Source: Hormoscilla sp. (GTDB taxonomy: Bacteria > Cyanobacteriota > Cyanobacteriia > Cyanobacteriales > Desertifilaceae). From it: 64,000 bases of DNA. The position numbers and the translations under genes were made by a program. The stretch covers positions 1-64,000 of the forward strand of contig JBFRWI010000148.1 of NCBI GenBank assembly GCA_051439505.1. The letters are read 5' to 3'. The notes under the pieces are model-generated. The model saw nothing but the letters and a program-made list of their open reading frames with translations. It was not told where the DNA came from and did not search any database. Below are positions 51,457 through 62,916 of this stretch, one piece after another; within the stretch, counting starts at the first letter, position 1, and every line of letters begins with the position of its first letter.

Positions 51457-52572
51457 ATGGCGGATCTCAATTGGAAAATCGGCTTTGAAATTGAACTGAT
51501 GGCACCTTTGGGGTTGAGTAGGCGCGATCTGGCAGAGGCGATCGCCCAAAAATGTAGCGGTTCAGTTAGCCGTTTCTTTCATCCCCAAACGGAACCCAGC
51601 CAAGTTCCGGGTACTCCCCTGTTCCATAATCTCACTCTCGGCTTCGAGGTCACAGACTCCCAAGGGCAAGTTATAGCTCGCTGTGTAGATGACTTAACTC
51701 TACAGGACGACTTCGACAAAAATTGCCCGCCCCAACCGGGATGGTATCGCATCCTCAGCGACGATCCCAGACTGCTGCAATTAATTATTCAACAGGCCGA
51801 TCCCGCAGCCGAAATCTCAGCAGTTCTTCAGCCGATCGCCCGGCTATTTGGCACTCAAACTGAAACAGGATCTGAAGGGATGATACGGGTCAAAGATCGT
51901 ACTGGCGCTCCCATCGCCATAGCAGCGCCCCTACCAGGAGAACGAGAACGCCCCTGCGAATTAATTACCCCCCCCTTCCATACCCGTCACGGCGATCGCC
52001 TGGGAGAACTCCTCGCCATCGCCCGTTCCCTAGGGTTCGGGGTGCCTGCGGAAGGGGCCTGTCACCTGCACTTCGATGCTGCGCCATTATGTGCTGCTCC
52101 CGTCCTGGCCAACCTGGTCTGTCTTCTCTGGACTCACGGAGCCAACCTGCGACGACTGGTGGGTACCAACCCCAAATGCCGCCGACTGGGAAGTTGGCCT
52201 CCAGAACTTTGGGAGATCGTATCGATGCCCGAATTTCGCCAACTTCCTTGGCCAGAAGCATCCGCTTGTCTCCAACAGCTCGAACTCTCCAAATACTGCG
52301 ATTTTAACCTGAAAAATTTCATTCACTCAATTCCAGACAAGCATACCTTTGAAGCGCGAATTTTTCCTGTTTGGCAACAGGAACAGCCAATTCTCGCAGC
52401 CGCTAGTTTAATAGAAGCTATCTTGCGTCGGGCCCAAGCAGAGGAGGAGATACCCCCCATCCCACCTCTCGAATGGAGTCTAGCACAGATGGAGGCTTTC
52501 TTAAACTACCTGCCCATGTCCCCAGAAATACGCCAATTTTGGCTATCGAAAGCACAATTTGCTAATGGCTAA
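51457..52572 (+). CDS. Putative amidoligase (COOH-NH2 ligase type 2)
   Basis: IGFEIE, ELITPP, HLHFD, KY..FN, TFEAR motifs. Confidence 0.8.
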   Translation: MADLNWKIGFEIELMAPLGLSRRDLAEAIAQKCSGSVSRFFHPQTEPSQVPGTPLFHNLTLGFEVTDSQGQVIARCVDDLTLQDDFDKNCPPQPGWYRILSDDPRLLQLIIQQADPAAEISAVLQPIARLFGTQTETGSEGMIRVKDRTGAPIAIAAPLPGERERPCELITPPFHTRHGDRLGELLAIARSLGFGVPAEGACHLHFDAAPLCAAPVLANLVCLLWTHGANLRRLVGTNPKCRRLGSWPPELWEIVSMPEFRQLPWPEASACLQQLELSKYCDFNLKNFIHSIPDKHTFEARIFPVWQQEQPILAAASLIEAILRRAQAEEEIPPIPPLEWSLAQMEAFLNYLPMSPEIRQFWLSKAQFANG

Positions 52573-53202
52573 TTGCTAATGGCTAATGGCTAATTGCTAA
52601 TGGCTAATGGCTAATTGCTAATGGCTAATTGCTAATGGCTAATTGCTAATGGCTAACTAAATATGAAAACATTTTCTCTTTTGAAGGAGAGGCGGGCGAT
52701 ATCGGGTGCATAAATTCTGGGCGATCGGGTGCAGGAGCAGTCTGGGACAAGGCATCAATTAATTTATTCTCATACTGAGGCCGTACAGATGCCGATAACA
52801 GGCGATCGCCCTCCCGTGCCTGGGCAGGGCCTGATGAACGCCACCGGCGTTCTCCGCAGTTAAGGCAATAACCTCCCAGACCGCGATCGCCTCAAAACTT
52901 ACCCTTGTGAGGGACTGGTCCCCCTATCATGGCAGCTGACACCAGTTCCTGGCCAGTACCAGAGAAATGTAACAAAACTTATAGTTTTCTCAGATACGGA
53001 CAGAGGTAGCCTAAGATAAAAATCGTTACGCTTTTTAATAAACGGCGTGGTCAACCCAGATTAATCTAGAGCCCGATCGCGATCGGCCACAGGCAGTCGG
53101 TAAGAGTGAATAGCAGTATAAGCGCTGGCAAAATGTGGTAGAAACAGGGTTGTCCAGTGGCACGCTTAGTCAGGAAGAGAACAAAAATAAGAAGGGAGCT
53201 AA

Positions 53203-56496
<3,294 letters not shown>

Positions 56497-56786
56497 AGCA
56501 CCGGTGTGGAGCGGCAGTTCGGGGGCAAGATCGAGGCCCCTGAACTGCGACAGCTGCGGCTGAGGGCAGAAAAATGAGGAGAAATATTAAATATTGTGAA
56601 GAAGAGATTGAAAAAGCAACCGAAATGCAGCAGAATAAAAGCTGAGTTAGTTGCGGCGCACCGAAATCCAACTGAGGTTGCTCCAGCAGGCCCAAAAGAA
56701 ATAACTGAGTATAAACTCTCTGTTAGCATTGGCGCCAGCCAAGTGAAGACCGATTTGGTTACATTAATTATTGGAGGAATCCACGC

Positions 56787-57272
56787 ATGAGTATAGTCAC
56801 GAAATCAATCGTGAATGCAGATGCTGAGGCCCGTTATCTCAGCCCTGGTGAACTAGACCGGATCAAAAGCTTTATCACATCAGGCGAACAGCGTCTGCGG
56901 ATCGCTCAAATTTTGACAGACTCCCGCGAACGGATCGTTAAGGAAGCAGGAGACCAACTGTTCCAAAAGCGCCCAGATGTGGTTTCTCCCGGTGGTAATG
57001 CTTATGGTGAAGAAATGACCGCTACCTGCCTGCGGGACATGGACTACTATCTGCGTCTGATTACCTACGGAATTGTCGCAGGAGATGTAACCCCGATCGA
57101 AGAAATCGGTCTGGTGGGTGCCAAGGAAATGTACAAGTCTTTGGGAACTTCCCTGGATGCGTTGGCGGAAAGCGTCCGCTGCATGAAGAGTGTCGCCACC
57201 GGCATGATGTCTGGTGACGATGCTGAGGAAGCAGGATCATACTTTGACTACGTGGTCGGTGGTCTGCAATAG
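56787..57272 (+). CDS. apcA: Allophycocyanin alpha subunit
   Basis: [32 protein letters not shown]. Confidence 0.98.
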
Positions 57273-57343
57273 GAGATATTCCTTCCCTTACCCGCTGCCC
57301 AAGAAAGTCCACAAAATTTAGGTAACTTCAAAGAAGCAAAACA

Positions 57344-57829
57344 ATGCAAGACGCAATTACCGCTGTAATTAATTCCTCTGATGTCCAAGGTAAGTACCTG
57401 GACTCCGCTGCCCTCGACAAGCTGAAAGGCTACTTCCAAACAGGTCAACTGCGCGTGCGTGCAGCCACAACTATTAGCGCCAATGCAGCCGCGATCGTCA
57501 AAGATGCTGTGGCCAAAGCCCTGCTGTACTCAGACGTCACCCGTCCCGGTGGCAACATGTACACCACCCGTCGCTATGCTGCTTGCATTCGCGACTTAGA
57601 CTACTACCTGCGCTACGCCACCTACGCCATGTTGGCCGGCGATCCTTCCATCCTGGATGAGCGGGTGCTCAACGGCTTGAAGGAAACCTACAACTCCTTG
57701 GGTGTGCCCATTAGCACTACAGTGCAAGCCATTCAAGCGATGAAAGAAGTCACAGCTAGTCTGGTGGGCCCGGATGCCGGTAAGGAAATGGGCGTCTACT
57801 TTGACTACATCTGCTCTGGCTTGAGCTAG
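57344..57829 (+). CDS. apcB: Allophycocyanin beta subunit
   Basis: [29 protein letters not shown]. Confidence 0.98.
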
Positions 57830-57860
57830 GAATTTTTCTGACTGCCTAGCCACTCATTGA

Positions 57861-57949
57861 GTCTGGGAAGTCGAAAGTGAGTCCTAGCCCGTTACTAGCC
57901 TAAAGAAATGGGTTAGATCGGTCTAGGATTTACTCTTGACTCCCAGACT
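57861..57949 (+). other. Long imperfect stem-loop between apcB and apcC
   Basis: AGTCTGGGA.GTC..AGTGAGTCCTAG ... CTAGGATTTACT..GACTCCCAGACT. Confidence 0.6.
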
Positions 57950-58018
57950 TTAAGATGTAAAATTTAATAAGTTCTTTAGATTTAAGCTTTTCAGCAAGAA
58001 ATAAGGAGAAATAGACCC

Positions 58019-58222
58019 ATGCGGACGTTTAAAATTACAGCCTGCGTTCCCAGCCTAAGTCGGATTCGCACCCAGCGGGAACTGCAAAACACCTACTTTA
58101 CCAAGGTAGTTGCCTACGACAACTGGTTTCCCGAACAGCAACGGATCATGAAAATGGGAGGCAAAATCCTCAAGGTGGAACTGGCTACTGGTAAAGTGGG
58201 GACGAACACGGGGCTGAAGTAG
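58019..58222 (+). CDS. apcC: Phycobilisome small core linker
   Basis: FKITACVPS..RIRTQRELQNTYFTK. Confidence 0.97.
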   Translation: MRTFKITACVPSLSRIRTQRELQNTYFTKVVAYDNWFPEQQRIMKMGGKILKVELATGKVGTNTGLK

Positions 58223-58661: not shown

Positions 58662-58684
58662 TTAAGTTTTAAGTTTAATTGATA

Positions 58685-59887
58685 ATGCTGGGTCGCTTAA
58701 TCCATTTTTTCAATCCCTCGACAGAGGAATGGGCAATGGAAGCCCGACTGCTGCGGTGGCTGACATTTCTCTGGCTGCTGGTGGGGTTGGCGGTGTTGTT
58801 TAGTGCGTCTTATCCTGTAGGCGATGCCGACTATGGTGATGGACTGTACTATTTTAAGCGACAGTTGCTATGGGCAGGATTTGGCTTGGTGGGATTCAGC
58901 CTGACAGTCAACACGCCTTTGCGATATCTATTGAAAATAGCCCAGTGGCTGGTGTTTTTGGGACTGGGGTTAATTGGGGCGACGATAATTCCCGGTTTGG
59001 GCACGACAATTAATGGTGCGACTCGCTGGCTATTTTTTGGTTCTTTTCCCCTGCAACCTTCTGAGTTGATTAAACCATTCTTGGTGCTGCAAAGTGCGAA
59101 GGTGTTTGGTAATTGGGAACAGTTGACTGTGAAGACTCGCTGGCGGTGGCTGGGGGTTTTTGTGGCGATCCTGGTGGGGATTTTGCTTCAGCCTAACTTG
59201 AGTACGGCGGCTTTCTGCGGCATGACCCTATTTCTAGTAGCGACGGCAGCAGGGTTGCCTTATGTTTATCTGGGAGCAACTGCTGGTGGCGGTTTGCTGT
59301 TAGGGATAATCAGCATCAGCTTCAATGAGTATCAGTGGCGTCGGATCATGTCTTTTTTGAATCCCTGGGCAGATCCCAAGCAGGACGGCTATCAGTTGAT
59401 TCAAAGTCTGCTGGCGATCGGATCTGGTGGTACTTGGGGGACGGGCTATGGACTGTCTCAGCAAAAGTTATTTTATTTGCCCATTCAACACACGGATTTT
59501 ATTTTTGCTGTCTATGCTGAAGAGTTTGGCTTGATTGGCAGTTGCCTGCTATTACTGATGCTAGCTGCCTATGCTACCTTGGGATTGGCAGTGGCCCTGA
59601 AGGCTAGCCCCAAGATCCATCAGCTAGTGGCTATAGGGGCGACGGTGTTAATTGTGGGGCAGTCTCTGTTAAATATTGGCGTTGCTACTGGTGTACTGCC
59701 GACTACGGGGTTGCCTTTCCCGATGTTTAGCTATGGTGGTAATTCCATGATTGCGAGTTTGCTGGCAGCAGGGTTGCTGCTTCGCGTGGCCCGGGAAAGT
59801 TCTGAAGCTGAGGCGGTCGGGATCGATCGCACTAGCTTTAAGGGGCGATCGCCTTCTGGTCGCAAGTTTCCCTCTCGCAGAAGATGA
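58685..59887 (+). CDS. ftsW: SEDS-family cell division protein FtsW
   Basis: NGATRW...QPSEL.KP, QPN, GYQ..QS, LP..HTDFIF, SYGG. Confidence 0.9.
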   Translation: MLGRLIHFFNPSTEEWAMEARLLRWLTFLWLLVGLAVLFSASYPVGDADYGDGLYYFKRQLLWAGFGLVGFSLTVNTPLRYLLKIAQWLVFLGLGLIGATIIPGLGTTINGATRWLFFGSFPLQPSELIKPFLVLQSAKVFGNWEQLTVKTRWRWLGVFVAILVGILLQPNLSTAAFCGMTLFLVATAAGLPYVYLGATAGGGLLLGIISISFNEYQWRRIMSFLNPWADPKQDGYQLIQSLLAIGSGGTWGTGYGLSQQKLFYLPIQHTDFIFAVYAEEFGLIGSCLLLLMLAAYATLGLAVALKASPKIHQLVAIGATVLIVGQSLLNIGVATGVLPTTGLPFPMFSYGGNSMIASLLAAGLLLRVARESSEAEAVGIDRTSFKGRSPSGRKFPSRRR

Positions 59888-59945: not shown

Positions 59946-60240
59946 ATGTTACGCACATTCAAAGCTGTACTGAAGGGTAATTATTTGGAGTGGCTGGAGG
60001 ATGCTCCTTTACAGGGCGATCGCCCTGTGAATGTTCATGTTATTATTGTCTCCTCAGAGTCAAGCAAAGACTTGCATGAAAGCAGTAAGAGAAGGCTTGA
60101 GGCGCTAGAAAAACTGGCAGCAAATAATGCTTTCGCGCTCTGTAGATCCAGTAGAATGGCAGCGCGAGGTGCGCCGCGATCGACCACTTCCGGGTAGAAT
60201 CAAATAATGTAATTGACAGTAATATCATTATCTATTCGCC
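59946..60240 (+). pseudogene. Decayed antitoxin plus VapC (PIN) N-terminal remnant
   Basis: MLRTFKAVLKGN..EW frameshifts into DPVEWQREVRRDRPLPGR (stop 60207); overlapping ATG then IDSNIIIY. Confidence 0.6.
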
Positions 60241-60270
60241 TTCTAGCCGCAGGTTTCCCTCACGCAGAAG

Positions 60271-60839
60271 ATGAAAGCAATAAAACTGGGAAATACTTGA
60301 CATTTGCAGAGTTTTGTCTTTGCACTTCTACTTATCAAAAGTATCCCGATCGCATTAACCCGTTTCCGCAAAACCCAGAAGAAACAATTCCCGCACTCCA
60401 GGACTTAAACAAGTTTATTATAGATGAGGCGATCGAGTATTTTGGCAGAGAGAAGTTTGAGCTGACCTATGGTTTTTGCTCTCGGGACTTAAAAAAGTAT
60501 CTGGAAAAGAAAGATCCGGTGACGGGATTGAAAAATGGTCGAGTAGCGCCTCATCTGGACCAACATATGTGCCATGAGGTGAATAAAAATGGGAAATCTT
60601 ATTGTGAAAGACTGGGGGCAGCATGTGACTTTTATATTAAGGATGTAGCAAGTAGTCAAGTGATGGAATGGATTTTAACTGAGAAATTGCCCTTTGATTC
60701 GATCTACTATTATGGAGAAAACCGACCCATACATATCAGTTACGGACCTCAGCACAAGCGAGATATCTGGACCTTTACGGATGCAGGTAAACCGACCCGA
60801 AAAGGGATTGAACACTGGGTTGAGTTGGCTAAGGAATAG
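60271..60839 (+). CDS. Peptidase M15/Hedgehog-fold-like protein, probably frameshifted at its 5' end
   Basis: LTYGFCS, DQH...GAACD, HISY motifs; the only nearby ATG (60271, MKAIKLG) is out of frame with GKYLTF. Confidence 0.55.
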
Positions 60840-60860: not shown

Positions 60861-60894
60861 GGTCTAAATGTAGTGATATCACTACATTTAGACC
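60861..60894. terminator. Perfect 34-bp palindrome between convergent genes
   Basis: GGTCTAAATGTAGTGATATCACTACATTTAGACC. Confidence 0.6.
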
Positions 60895-60944
60895 GTGGTT
60901 TCAGGCGCGACAATCACTGCTTACCCACTACCGCGATCGCCAAT

Positions 60945-61778
60945 TTACTCCTTACTCACACTTTGAATAACTTTTGATTGAGCCTTTTTGTATTTGTCAA
61001 CAATTGAGCCTTCATCAGACTCTAACTCCCAATCTGTTCCGAATTCCTTAAGTAGCATCAAAATCCCTATTGCACTTGCTGGATTAGTAGCATAAGGAAT
61101 CTGGTGGACATCACACAAACGAGTTAAGGCTTCAATATCAGCAGCATGAGCATGAGAGCTTAGTGGATCCTTAAAAAAGAAAATCGCAGAAATCTTTTCT
61201 TCAGAAATCATCCCGCCGATCGCTTGATCTCCACCCAGCGGTCCGCTCGCAACAAGTTTGGCAACAGGAATACCCAGGGATTTCTTCAGAGTCCTGCCCG
61301 TACTTCCTGTTGTTACAAGTGGAACTTTACTGAAAAAATCCTTATGTTCTGCTACAAACTTTTTCAGGGCACTCTTCATTTCATTATGAGCAACGAGGGA
61401 GATATATTTTGTGTTGTCATCAACCTCAACGGGGGGCATTTCAGGGACTGGTCCCTGCTCTTCTTTTTGAGATTTTACCGCTCCTTCTATAGCTTTGTTG
61501 AATTCCTCAAGATCTAGATCTCCATCTCCAGAGGTATCAACTATCTTAAACAAGTCTTCCCCATGCTTTTCTAACCAATCTCCTATCCCGAACTGCTCAA
61601 AAAACTTCTTGAATTCATCAATGGTAATATTTCCGTCACCATTTTCATCAGCTGCTTCAAAAGCACCCTTGGTATTAATCCATTTTCGATCGAGTAAATC
61701 TTGGAACTCAATCAGTATCTGCTCTTTAGACGCTTCTTCCGTTGTCATATCTTGCTCCTTTTGATCTTCCATCTGCAT
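60945..61778 (-). CDS. mgsA: EF-hand pair fused to methylglyoxal synthase
   Basis: DENGDGNITIDE and DTSGDGDLDLEE loops; LVAH, TGSTG, SGPLGGDQ, FFKDP, H..DI.AL.RLCDV..IPYATN. Confidence 0.85.
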   Translation of the reverse strand: MQMEDQKEQDMTTEEASKEQILIEFQDLLDRKWINTKGAFEAADENGDGNITIDEFKKFFEQFGIGDWLEKHGEDLFKIVDTSGDGDLDLEEFNKAIEGAVKSQKEEQGPVPEMPPVEVDDNTKYISLVAHNEMKSALKKFVAEHKDFFSKVPLVTTGSTGRTLKKSLGIPVAKLVASGPLGGDQAIGGMISEEKISAIFFFKDPLSSHAHAADIEALTRLCDVHQIPYATNPASAIGILMLLKEFGTDWELESDEGSIVDKYKKAQSKVIQSVSKE

Positions 61779-61954
61779 CCCGAGCCAAATGCTTCAATGG
61801 CTATTGACTCCTAGCATCGATCGGGAAACTCGCGATCGCGCATAACCGGTGCCGGATAGTTTTCCAGCTATGGGAATGCTGCCCTGACCGCGCTTTGTCT
61901 ATCATAAATCCTCAAAAACGATTTGTCAAGTTGATTTTTTATTCAATATCTCGG

Positions 61955-62182: not shown

Positions 62183-62449
62183 ATGCTTCTTACAATAGAG
62201 ATTCCTGATGAAATTGCTCAAGAGTTAGACCAGCCATTGGGAAGCCTATCTCGCAGGCTGCTGGAAATGGCTGTTGCTGAGGCTTACCGTTCTGATTTAA
62301 TTAGTACTGCTGAAGTACGAAGGATGCTTCAGTTACCTTCTCGTCTAGAAACTCACGCATTCCTAAAGCGAATGGGTGTTTATCTCAACTATGACGAAGC
62401 TGAACTAGAACAAGATATCCAAACCCTGAAAGAATTACGCTCTCAATGA
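62183..62449 (+). CDS. UPF0175-family antitoxin
   Basis: Y....IS.AEVRRML.L.SR.ETHAFLK..GVYLNYD. Confidence 0.85.
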   Translation: MLLTIEIPDEIAQELDQPLGSLSRRLLEMAVAEAYRSDLISTAEVRRMLQLPSRLETHAFLKRMGVYLNYDEAELEQDIQTLKELRSQ

Positions 62450-62916
62450 TTGTCATATCTGATACTTCACCAATTTGCTACCTGTTGTTAATCGACCAGA
62501 TTAATATATTACCAGAACTGTACAGCTTCGTCCTAATTCCCCAGGCTGTATATGATGAGTTAAATTCACCTTATTCACCATCGGCAATCCGAAATTGGAT
62601 TGCTTACCCCCCTGAATGGCTTCAAGTTAAAACCATTGATACGGCTGAGATATCCGGATTAGAAAAACTTGACATCGGCGAACGGGAGGCGATTTTATTA
62701 GCAGAACAAATGCAGGCTGAATTAGTTATCTTGGATGATAAAGCAGCAAGACGTATAGCCCGAGAACGAACATTGAAAATCATCGGACTTATTGGGATTT
62801 TGAAAGATGCTGCGAGAACTGGTTTGGTAGATTTGCAGGTAACTTTTGAACGTCTGCAAGAAGTTGGCTTTTGGGTTGCACCCAGTCTGCTCAAACAACT
62901 TCTGAGTGAGGATTAG
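62446..62916 (+). CDS. DUF3368 PIN-domain toxin
   Basis: ISDTSPI, LD.GEREAI.LA, LDDKAAR, GLIG.L. Confidence 0.88.
   Translation: MIVISDTSPICYLLLIDQINILPELYSFVLIPQAVYDELNSPYSPSAIRNWIAYPPEWLQVKTIDTAEISGLEKLDIGEREAILLAEQMQAELVILDDKAARRIARERTLKIIGLIGILKDAARTGLVDLQVTFERLQEVGFWVAPSLLKQLLSED

Follow-up and report, generated by a model that had tools for sequence, protein, structure and literature searches.

The window that we analyzed, a 64,000-nucleotide stretch of DNA from the cyanobacterium Hormoscilla sp., contains a gene (60945..61778, minus strand; 277 aa from the first ATG) in which an EF-hand pair is fused to a methylglyoxal synthase (MGS) domain and a C-terminal helix. We propose that the product, here termed EF-MGS, is a methylglyoxal synthase of low basal activity in which Ca2+ has likely replaced phosphate as the controlling signal; this reading stands an even chance of being correct. 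EF-MGS would turn DHAP slowly into methylglyoxal and phosphate in its basal state, and Ca2+ at the predicted EF-hand pair would change the rate. Loss of the Asp20-Arg150 bridge of E. coli MgsA may weaken the usual cooperative phosphate inhibition and lower the basal turnover, with the N-terminal sensor taking over as the switch, probably by way of the C-terminal helix, which in E. coli reaches the neighboring active site. The direction of the Ca2+ effect is a guess: we assume activation because the product is toxic. EF-MGS is a variant of a known enzyme family and belongs to a sensor-fused MGS clade, in which the sensor is an EF pair, a cNMP-binding domain, or both. As to whether the fusion had already been characterized, a question raised by the original prediction, its architecture is visible in databases and no description was found in the searched literature.

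The gene is a single uninterrupted frame. Translation likely starts at Met11 (ATG at 61748), giving a protein of 267 aa, because a Shine-Dalgarno-like AAGGAG lies 6 nt upstream (61755..61760, minus strand), a cluster member is 267 aa long, and a relative assembled from run X5 (study P2) departs from the window upstream of 61774. This independent contig covers positions 60912-61774 with 64 substitutions and one 9-nt in-frame gap; study P1, from which the window may itself derive, is left out of the count. A sigma70-like promoter match (11/12; 61901..61929, minus strand) about 150 nt upstream of Met11 is a consensus match only, six such sites being found against 7.0 expected in shuffles. A perfect palindrome with 17-bp arms (60861..60894), located between the gene and a convergent open reading frame, is possibly a terminator shared by the two. 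Low GC and a patchy distribution could also be produced by an assembly or annotation artifact or by a decaying gene, a reading to which we give practically no chance: the frame is intact, the relatives show purifying selection, and the many full-length homologs refute it. The fusion is real and not an assembly chimera, since the X5 contig from a separate study spans the gene and full-length homologs are present in named genomes.

The convergent frame (60213-60839, plus strand) is AT-rich, encodes 208 aa without a Pfam or NCBIfam match at E 0.1, and begins with a 54-nt stretch that recurs at 59849. On the other side, a UPF0175 and DUF3368 gene pair (62183-62916, plus strand), likely a toxin-antitoxin-like module, has 54-nt direct repeats on either side (61955 and 63060) and is bypassed in some run X5 contigs. 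Farther away are an Amidoligase_2 gene followed by allophycocyanin core genes (51457-58222), which we take to be apcE, apcA, apcB, and apcC, and an ftsW-like gene (58679-59887). The phycobilisome genes near EF-MGS and a density of HIP1 sites of about 1 per kb identify the host genome as cyanobacterial.

The architecture foreseen from the nucleotide sequence largely held: both Pfam domains pass their cut-offs in the one intact frame. The EF pair (residues 37-97) scores 45.4 bits with EF-hand_7 (cut-off 30), and the region passes the cut-offs of four Pfam EF models. The two predicted canonical loops are present at residues 44-55 (61614..61649, minus strand; D1, N3, D5, G6, E12) and 81-92 (61503..61538, minus strand; D1, S3, D5, G6, D9, E12), as seen in the sequence, the Pfam matches, and the homolog alignment; each has oxygen ligands at positions 1, 3, 5, and 12 and Gly at position 6 of a 12-residue loop, the canonical positions being taken from PMC13578307. 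They are followed by a linker (residues 106-121; 61416..61463, minus strand; delimited from sequence and model) that is Pro-rich as predicted, with 4 Pro in residues 110-116, although this richness is not conserved in homologs. The MGS domain (residues 122-246; 61041..61415, minus strand), delimited by profiles, structural alignment, and the E. coli mapping, gives 44.3 bits with Pfam MGS over residues 141-231 (cut-off 24.1) and retains the announced GGDQ, FFFKDP, and HxxD motifs. It reaches 138.8 bits with the MgsA equivalog NF003559 (cut-off 84) and stays below the cut-off of TIGR00160, also an MgsA equivalog (126 bits against 146.9). The XopAW calcium-binding effector family NF041410 matches the EF region only, below its cut-off (32.5 bits against 120), and no carbamoyl phosphate synthetase or PurH domain was found in the protein, the PurH and CarB of the genome being separate loci (L001 and L002).

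An AlphaFold2 model built from a 77-row alignment (mean pLDDT 90.4, pTM 0.80) contains a helix-loop-helix pair (residues 36-105), an MGS fold (125-246), and a helix (256-276). Within the pair, helices 36-43, 53-62, 66-80, and 90-105 and strands 50-52 and 87-89 form two paired helix-loop-helix units with a short inter-loop sheet. The model matched EF-hand proteins with Z of 9-11.6 and solved MGS enzymes with Z of 17-20, rmsd 1.4-2.7 Å, and 36-43% identity; 8u2v_A was matched with a Z of 20.2 and an rmsd of 1.5 Å over 125 residues, and Foldseek supported the MGS fold with an E of 3e-11. No solved structure of an EF and MGS fusion was present among the structural matches. A complex prediction of three copies with Ca2+ gave a score of 0.32 (mark 0.42) and counts as evidence neither for nor against the proposal. 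The MGS-like domains (PF02142) of carbamoyl phosphate synthetase and PurH share the fold (Z about 10-11) and the Pfam family, but only 15-18% identity, and EF-MGS keeps the MgsA-specific active-site motifs.

Compared with MgsA (EC 4.2.3.3; 1b93 and 1egh from E. coli, 2x8w from Thermus sp. GH5, 8u2v, 6f2c), the fold, the catalytic and phosphate-binding residues, and the position of the C-terminal helix are alike, whereas EF-MGS has the N-terminal EF pair, Asn in place of Asp20, Gln in place of Arg150, and a longer C-terminal helix. That helix (residues 256-276; 60951..61013, minus strand; from the model and structural alignment) had been regarded as an extra element; it is present but superposes on the Arg150 helix of E. 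coli. Its register was taken from the structural alignment, as sequence alignment alone misplaced it. Model residues 122-269 pair with 9-152 of 1egh, 121-265 with 9-148 of 1b93, and 121-261 with 9-144 of 5h3l; from the single offset at these range ends (269=152, 265=148, 261=144) we infer that Gln267 (codon 60978-60980, minus strand) corresponds to Arg150 and Tyr263 to Tyr146. The residue of the E. coli-type allosteric bridge, which is also absent in Thermus, is thus not found in EF-MGS.

The active site is otherwise nearly complete. H131, K135, T157/S159/T160, S178/G179, D184, D204, H211, D214, and R220 correspond, in this order, to E. coli H19, K23, T45/T47/T48, S65/G66, D71, D91, H98, D101, and R107. 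H19, K23, T45, T48, S65, G66, D71, D91, P92, H98, D101, R107, and V111 are all kept, and the changes are T47 to Ser and D20 to Asn132 (61383..61385, minus strand; E. coli mapping and homolog alignment). According to PMC7843640, D71, H19, and H98 are catalytic and K23, TGTTG, and S65/G66 bind phosphate. The preferred reading draws on the retention of the base D184 (D71), of H131, H211, D204, and D214, and of the phosphate-binding loops. The AHN in place of AHD (residues 130-132) had been noticed from the sequence, but its cost had been overlooked. Asp20 and Arg150 form an inter-subunit salt bridge that is one of two routes of phosphate allostery, and in Thermus MGS the equivalent change, D10N, lowers kcat from 326 to 0.41 s-1, about 800-fold, with a Km of 0.75 instead of 0.50 mM (PMC4133812, Table 1). 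The Hill coefficient of this mutant barely altered (1.40 versus 1.50), in an enzyme that is tail-less and lacks Arg150 (PMC4133812). The fall in kcat indicates that Asp20 is needed for normal turnover, so the subfamily must be slow, rescued by unseen changes, switched on by its sensor, or something other than a methylglyoxal synthase. We found no residue that makes up for the change; His209 was considered as a clade-specific compensator and ruled out, as it also occurs in 14 AHD rows.

Asn132 is a fixed trait of the subfamily. It is present in all 77 rows of the homolog alignment and in 181 of 203 distinct domains; the C-terminal helix could be aligned in 169 of these 181, with Gln267 in 165. 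Of 47 distinct cores of stand-alone MGS on viral contigs, 46 have Asp at this position, which makes Asn132 a clade feature. Because the conserved Asp20 of AHD is missing, we file EF-MGS as a divergent subfamily rather than as a canonical MgsA. Catalytic residues are retained in nearly all of the 181 distinct AHN domains (H131 in 179, K135 in 179, T157 in 180, T160 in 179, S178 in 178, D184 in 176, D204 in 179, and H211, D214, and R220 in 177 each). The Asn132/Gln267 pair traces largely to one ancestral event rather than to many independent ones. The sole Arg267 is in the degenerate domain 1 of P0144, a tandem EF-MGS duplication; domain 2 of this protein has AHD but lacks the helix. This single event fits a restoration of the Asp20/Arg150 pair in trans, while P0277, with AHD and without Arg at 267, is against such pairing.

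The Thermus result, with its large loss of kcat and little change in Km, also suits a crippled MGS domain that would bind DHAP, phosphate, or 2-phosphoglycolate and, together with Ca2+ (or cNMP), signal triose-phosphate or photorespiratory status through a protein partner. We consider this unlikely. In its favor, 2-phosphoglycolate is a competitive inhibitor and is bound in E. coli 1egh, carbamoyl phosphate synthetase uses domains of the MGS fold as sites for allosteric ligands (1ce8), and the named members are mostly phototrophs; but 97-99% of the domains retain the base and the two histidines, beyond what binding would seem to need, the two-domain protein has no output domain, and members occur in Bacteroidota-labeled genomes (L022). 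It is more improbable that the subfamily acts on another sugar phosphate, by phosphate elimination or isomerization of a triose or tetrose phosphate, with Asn132 as a change of specificity. The contrast between the fixed Asn132 and the Asp of viral stand-alone cores would fit this, as would the isochorismatase-family domain of two eukaryote-like members, but the phosphate loop and catalytic residues are those of canonical MGS and the PFK genes beside cNMP-type members fit a supply of DHAP.

In order to delimit the family, we searched for homologs and retrieved 248 proteins, of which 120 were listed and 76 of those aligned with the query (77 rows). Scored with a canonical EF-loop pattern, 63 of the 71 rows in which both EF loops aligned keep at least one canonical loop. 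In the bacterial-type group, 33 of 34 rows keep at least one and 25 keep both; in the eukaryote-like group, 30 of 37 rows keep at least one, 14 keep both, and 7 fit neither. Three related, and hence non-independent, Nostocales pairs gave dN/dS values of 0.04-0.07 for the MGS domain and 0.19-0.26 for the EF region, which supports purifying selection on both domains. The Ca2+ ligands of the fusion first noted from this one sequence are conserved across its homologs.

As in calmodulin-type lobes and the cyanobacterial protein CSE, the EF pair has two 12-residue loops with ligands at 1, 3, 5, and 12 and Gly6; CSE is a stand-alone protein of 77 aa, whereas in EF-MGS a long helix with a conserved Trp33 precedes the pair, which is joined to an enzyme domain. 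In PMC13578307, CSE is described as a Ca2+ buffer with two EF-hands that is partly folded by Mg2+. By this precedent, the EF pair of an active MGS could be a structural, Mg2+-filled, or localization module, leaving catalysis outside Ca2+ control, and the confident whole-chain model (by its pTM) would be compatible with fixed packing, while the loops vary or decay in some members. We regard this as rather unlikely, since most bacterial members retain the ligands at positions 1, 3, 5, and 12 and the exchange of EF and cNMP domains on one clade fits a regulatory slot.

Carriers of the EF-pair fusion are scattered cyanobacteria together with haptophyte and diatom transcripts. The nearest named relatives are cyanobacterial (60-61% identity), and a GTDB scan with two peptide patterns gave 74 loci, five of them with the full fusion (two Nostoc, one Brasilonema, one unclassified cyanobacterium, and one marine Synechococcus); L019, a Nostoc copy, has lost EF1. 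An ESM Atlas cluster of 55 members, named only 'methylglyoxal synthase', has MGS in 100% and EF-hand in 96%. Eukaryotes are named in 3 of the 30 clusters looked up (Prymnesium polylepis, Phaeocystis antarctica, and Cylindrotheca closterium, known from transcripts), and MMETSP/EukProt labels add five representatives (P0038, P0056, P0087, P0144, and P0047), three cases being without species and the others overlapping; most other eukaryote-like labels follow from tree position and sequence style. The fusion is thus no one-off. We found no conserved operon around EF-MGS in six loci (72 of 128 neighboring ORFs scanned), and none of 72 matching plasmid records covers 80% of the protein. Of 85 viral-contig loci, 80 were kept, and among those listed all are stand-alone MGS, none with a full-length match.

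Several variants of the architecture were observed. P0041 and P0134 begin with a hydrophobic stretch followed by Ala-Phe, presumably similar to a diatom plastid-targeting signal. Four of 13 inspected N-termini, all eukaryote-like (P0144, P0062, P0212, and P0093), start with Met-Gly, two with a nearby Cys, which we take to resemble N-acylation (myristoylation-like) signals. In diatom-type P0165/P0289, P0192, P0168, and P0186, EF-MGS carries an isochorismatase-family domain at one end or the other (a Pfam match in P0165 and P0192). P0197, P0253, and P0279, which lie on long branches, are MGS-MGS tandems that have AHN and an NTT phosphate loop but lack the EF pair. Viral contigs of up to about 360 kb (L117, L126, L140, L163, L184, and similar) encode a stand-alone AHD MGS with an insertion after the TGTTG loop, and the viral-contig locus L141 has AHN.

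The homolog and genome searches also gave many MGS proteins with an N-terminal cNMP-binding domain (PF00027 with PF02142), for example in marine Synechococcus, and a few with an EF pair, a cNMP-like domain, and MGS together (e.g., P0102 and the Bacteroidota-labeled L022). The cNMP type shares with EF-MGS the clade, AHN, the YxxxQ helix, and the N-terminal sensor slot; its sensor is a cNMP-binding domain, and its genes are often near cyclase and PFK genes. A cNMP-binding motif, GE..R[STVA][AS], is kept in 33 of 39 such proteins. An adenylate/guanylate-cyclase homolog was found at 11 and a PFK homolog at 6 of 24 cNMP or EF+cNMP loci, a set that includes the query-supplying locus, consists mostly of related and non-independent marine Synechococcus, and has some short loci; neither was found at the six EF-MGS loci. 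These genes adjoin cNMP-MGS rather than being co-oriented with it. In the marine Synechococcus loci L024, L028, L029, and L031, cNMP-MGS occurs with a CHASE2 adenylate/guanylate cyclase, a FecR-domain gene, and PFK, and some clusters of this type have further cNMP-binding or Crp genes; this arrangement is a candidate cyclic-nucleotide-controlled glycolytic module. Two spirochete cNMP-MGS proteins, with AHD and no helix, fall outside the sensor-fused clade.

The occurrence of two unrelated input domains, EF and cNMP, on one MGS clade suggests that MGS is the output domain. A regulated enzyme is favored because the full catalytic set is under strong purifying selection, because the two input domains occupy one slot with no other output domain, and because the cNMP branch lies by cyclase and PFK genes. 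Against it stand the Thermus D10N loss, the TIGR00160 score, the unshared EF-MGS neighborhoods, the degenerate EF loops of some members, the largely single origin of the Asn132/Gln267 pair, P0277, and the apparent dispensability of MGS activity in the genus.

Phylogenetic analysis supports the unity of the clade. In a tree of 109 MGS cores, which like all the trees here was a quick one built without bootstrap, the EF- and cNMP-type AHN proteins are on one side (82 rows, SH-aLRT 98), as they are in a second tree of 107 rows (SH-aLRT 93), and the EF-MGS proteins form a group of 64 rows (SH-aLRT 97). The cyanobacterial-type group lies beside the eukaryote-like group in the 109-row tree and is nested in it in the 107- and 49-row trees (support 80-96); on removal of 14 long or redundant rows, the eukaryote-like rows form one side (support 67). 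Because the placement shifts with the choice of rows, a eukaryotic donor is no more than a possibility.

EF-MGS was likely acquired recently by horizontal transfer, as a single gene within an AT-rich patch shared with the UPF0175/DUF3368 pair, on the evidence of composition and distribution: its GC (41%) and GC3 (35%) are in the lowest 4% and 2% of 3181 ORFs, and the fusion is absent from all 40 relatives searched and present in one of 400 other cyanobacterial genomes, five others of which have a cNMP-type MGS. Depletion of HIP1 was uninformative as a sign of transfer, since 49% of similar-sized genes also have none. The original prediction was thus borne out on horizontal acquisition of an AT-rich gene. 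Its suggestion of a eukaryote-like origin found no such support: the closest relatives are cyanobacterial, and the trees disagree between nested and sister positions. The phylogeny it called for did reveal a clade common to algae, but with a direction of nesting that varies among trees.

The host genome also has a resident MGS, an MGS-DAG-kinase-like fusion of intact frame (L004:505-1860, minus strand) with about 30% identity to EF-MGS, Gln at His98 and Asp101, and Pro at Ser65. Stops and frameshifts interrupt this copy in genomes G001 and G002, the latter of which has acquired a cNMP-type gene; the searches of G003 and G004 recovered no more than C-terminal fragments of it. Since nothing passes the NF003559 cut-off in three of the five genomes of the genus, the activity appears dispensable. 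Both genomes of the genus with an intact-motif MGS carry the sensor-fused subfamily, which is suggestive but weak. Glyoxalase I is encoded in the host genome, which, like the altered state of the resident copy, counts in favor of the proposed reading. MgsA had been described as a stand-alone enzyme, but MGS is often fused: besides the cNMP fusions, cyanobacteria have MGS-DAG-kinase-like copies of 420-508 aa, and we take Synechocystis sll0036 to have this layout. The latter fusions likewise join MGS to another domain but form a separate clade, mostly with AHD, with MGS at the N-terminus, and without sensor domain or YxxxQ helix. Loss of sll0036 lowered methylglyoxal under mixotrophy (PMC11897720).

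We found no literature on an EF-hand-, calcium-binding-, or cNMP-binding-MGS fusion in full-text searches of a library with few subscription papers, and nothing on sensor-fused MGS among the titles and abstract beginnings of papers on algal or diatom MGS. Methylglyoxal is commonly regarded as a toxic by-product and MGS as an enzyme kept in check by phosphate; Bacillus MgsA is reportedly also controlled by Crh (a B. subtilis study of 2018).

In a broader and more tentative view, to which we give less than even weight, the subfamily may have exchanged the phosphate feedback of Asp20-Arg150 for second messengers, Ca2+ in one branch and a cyclic nucleotide in another, with the Ca2+ branch common to cyanobacteria and eukaryotic algae. 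If true, methylglyoxal would be made on purpose on a Ca2+ signal, also in eukaryotes, which are said to lack the enzyme: a 2024 paper states that MGS occurs only in prokaryotes (PMC11897720). The natural Asn/Gln pair is a ready test of the roles of Asp20 and Arg150 in MGS catalysis and allostery. Should the protein turn out to be inactive, there would still be a metabolite-sensing pseudoenzyme to explain, one that is conserved from cyanobacteria to algae. Control of MGS by Ca2+ or cNMP would turn methylglyoxal into a regulated output, and in the Ca2+ case cyanobacteria would have an enzyme on which Ca2+ acts directly; for Nostoc, PMC13578307 gives only two Ca2+-binding proteins as analyzed.
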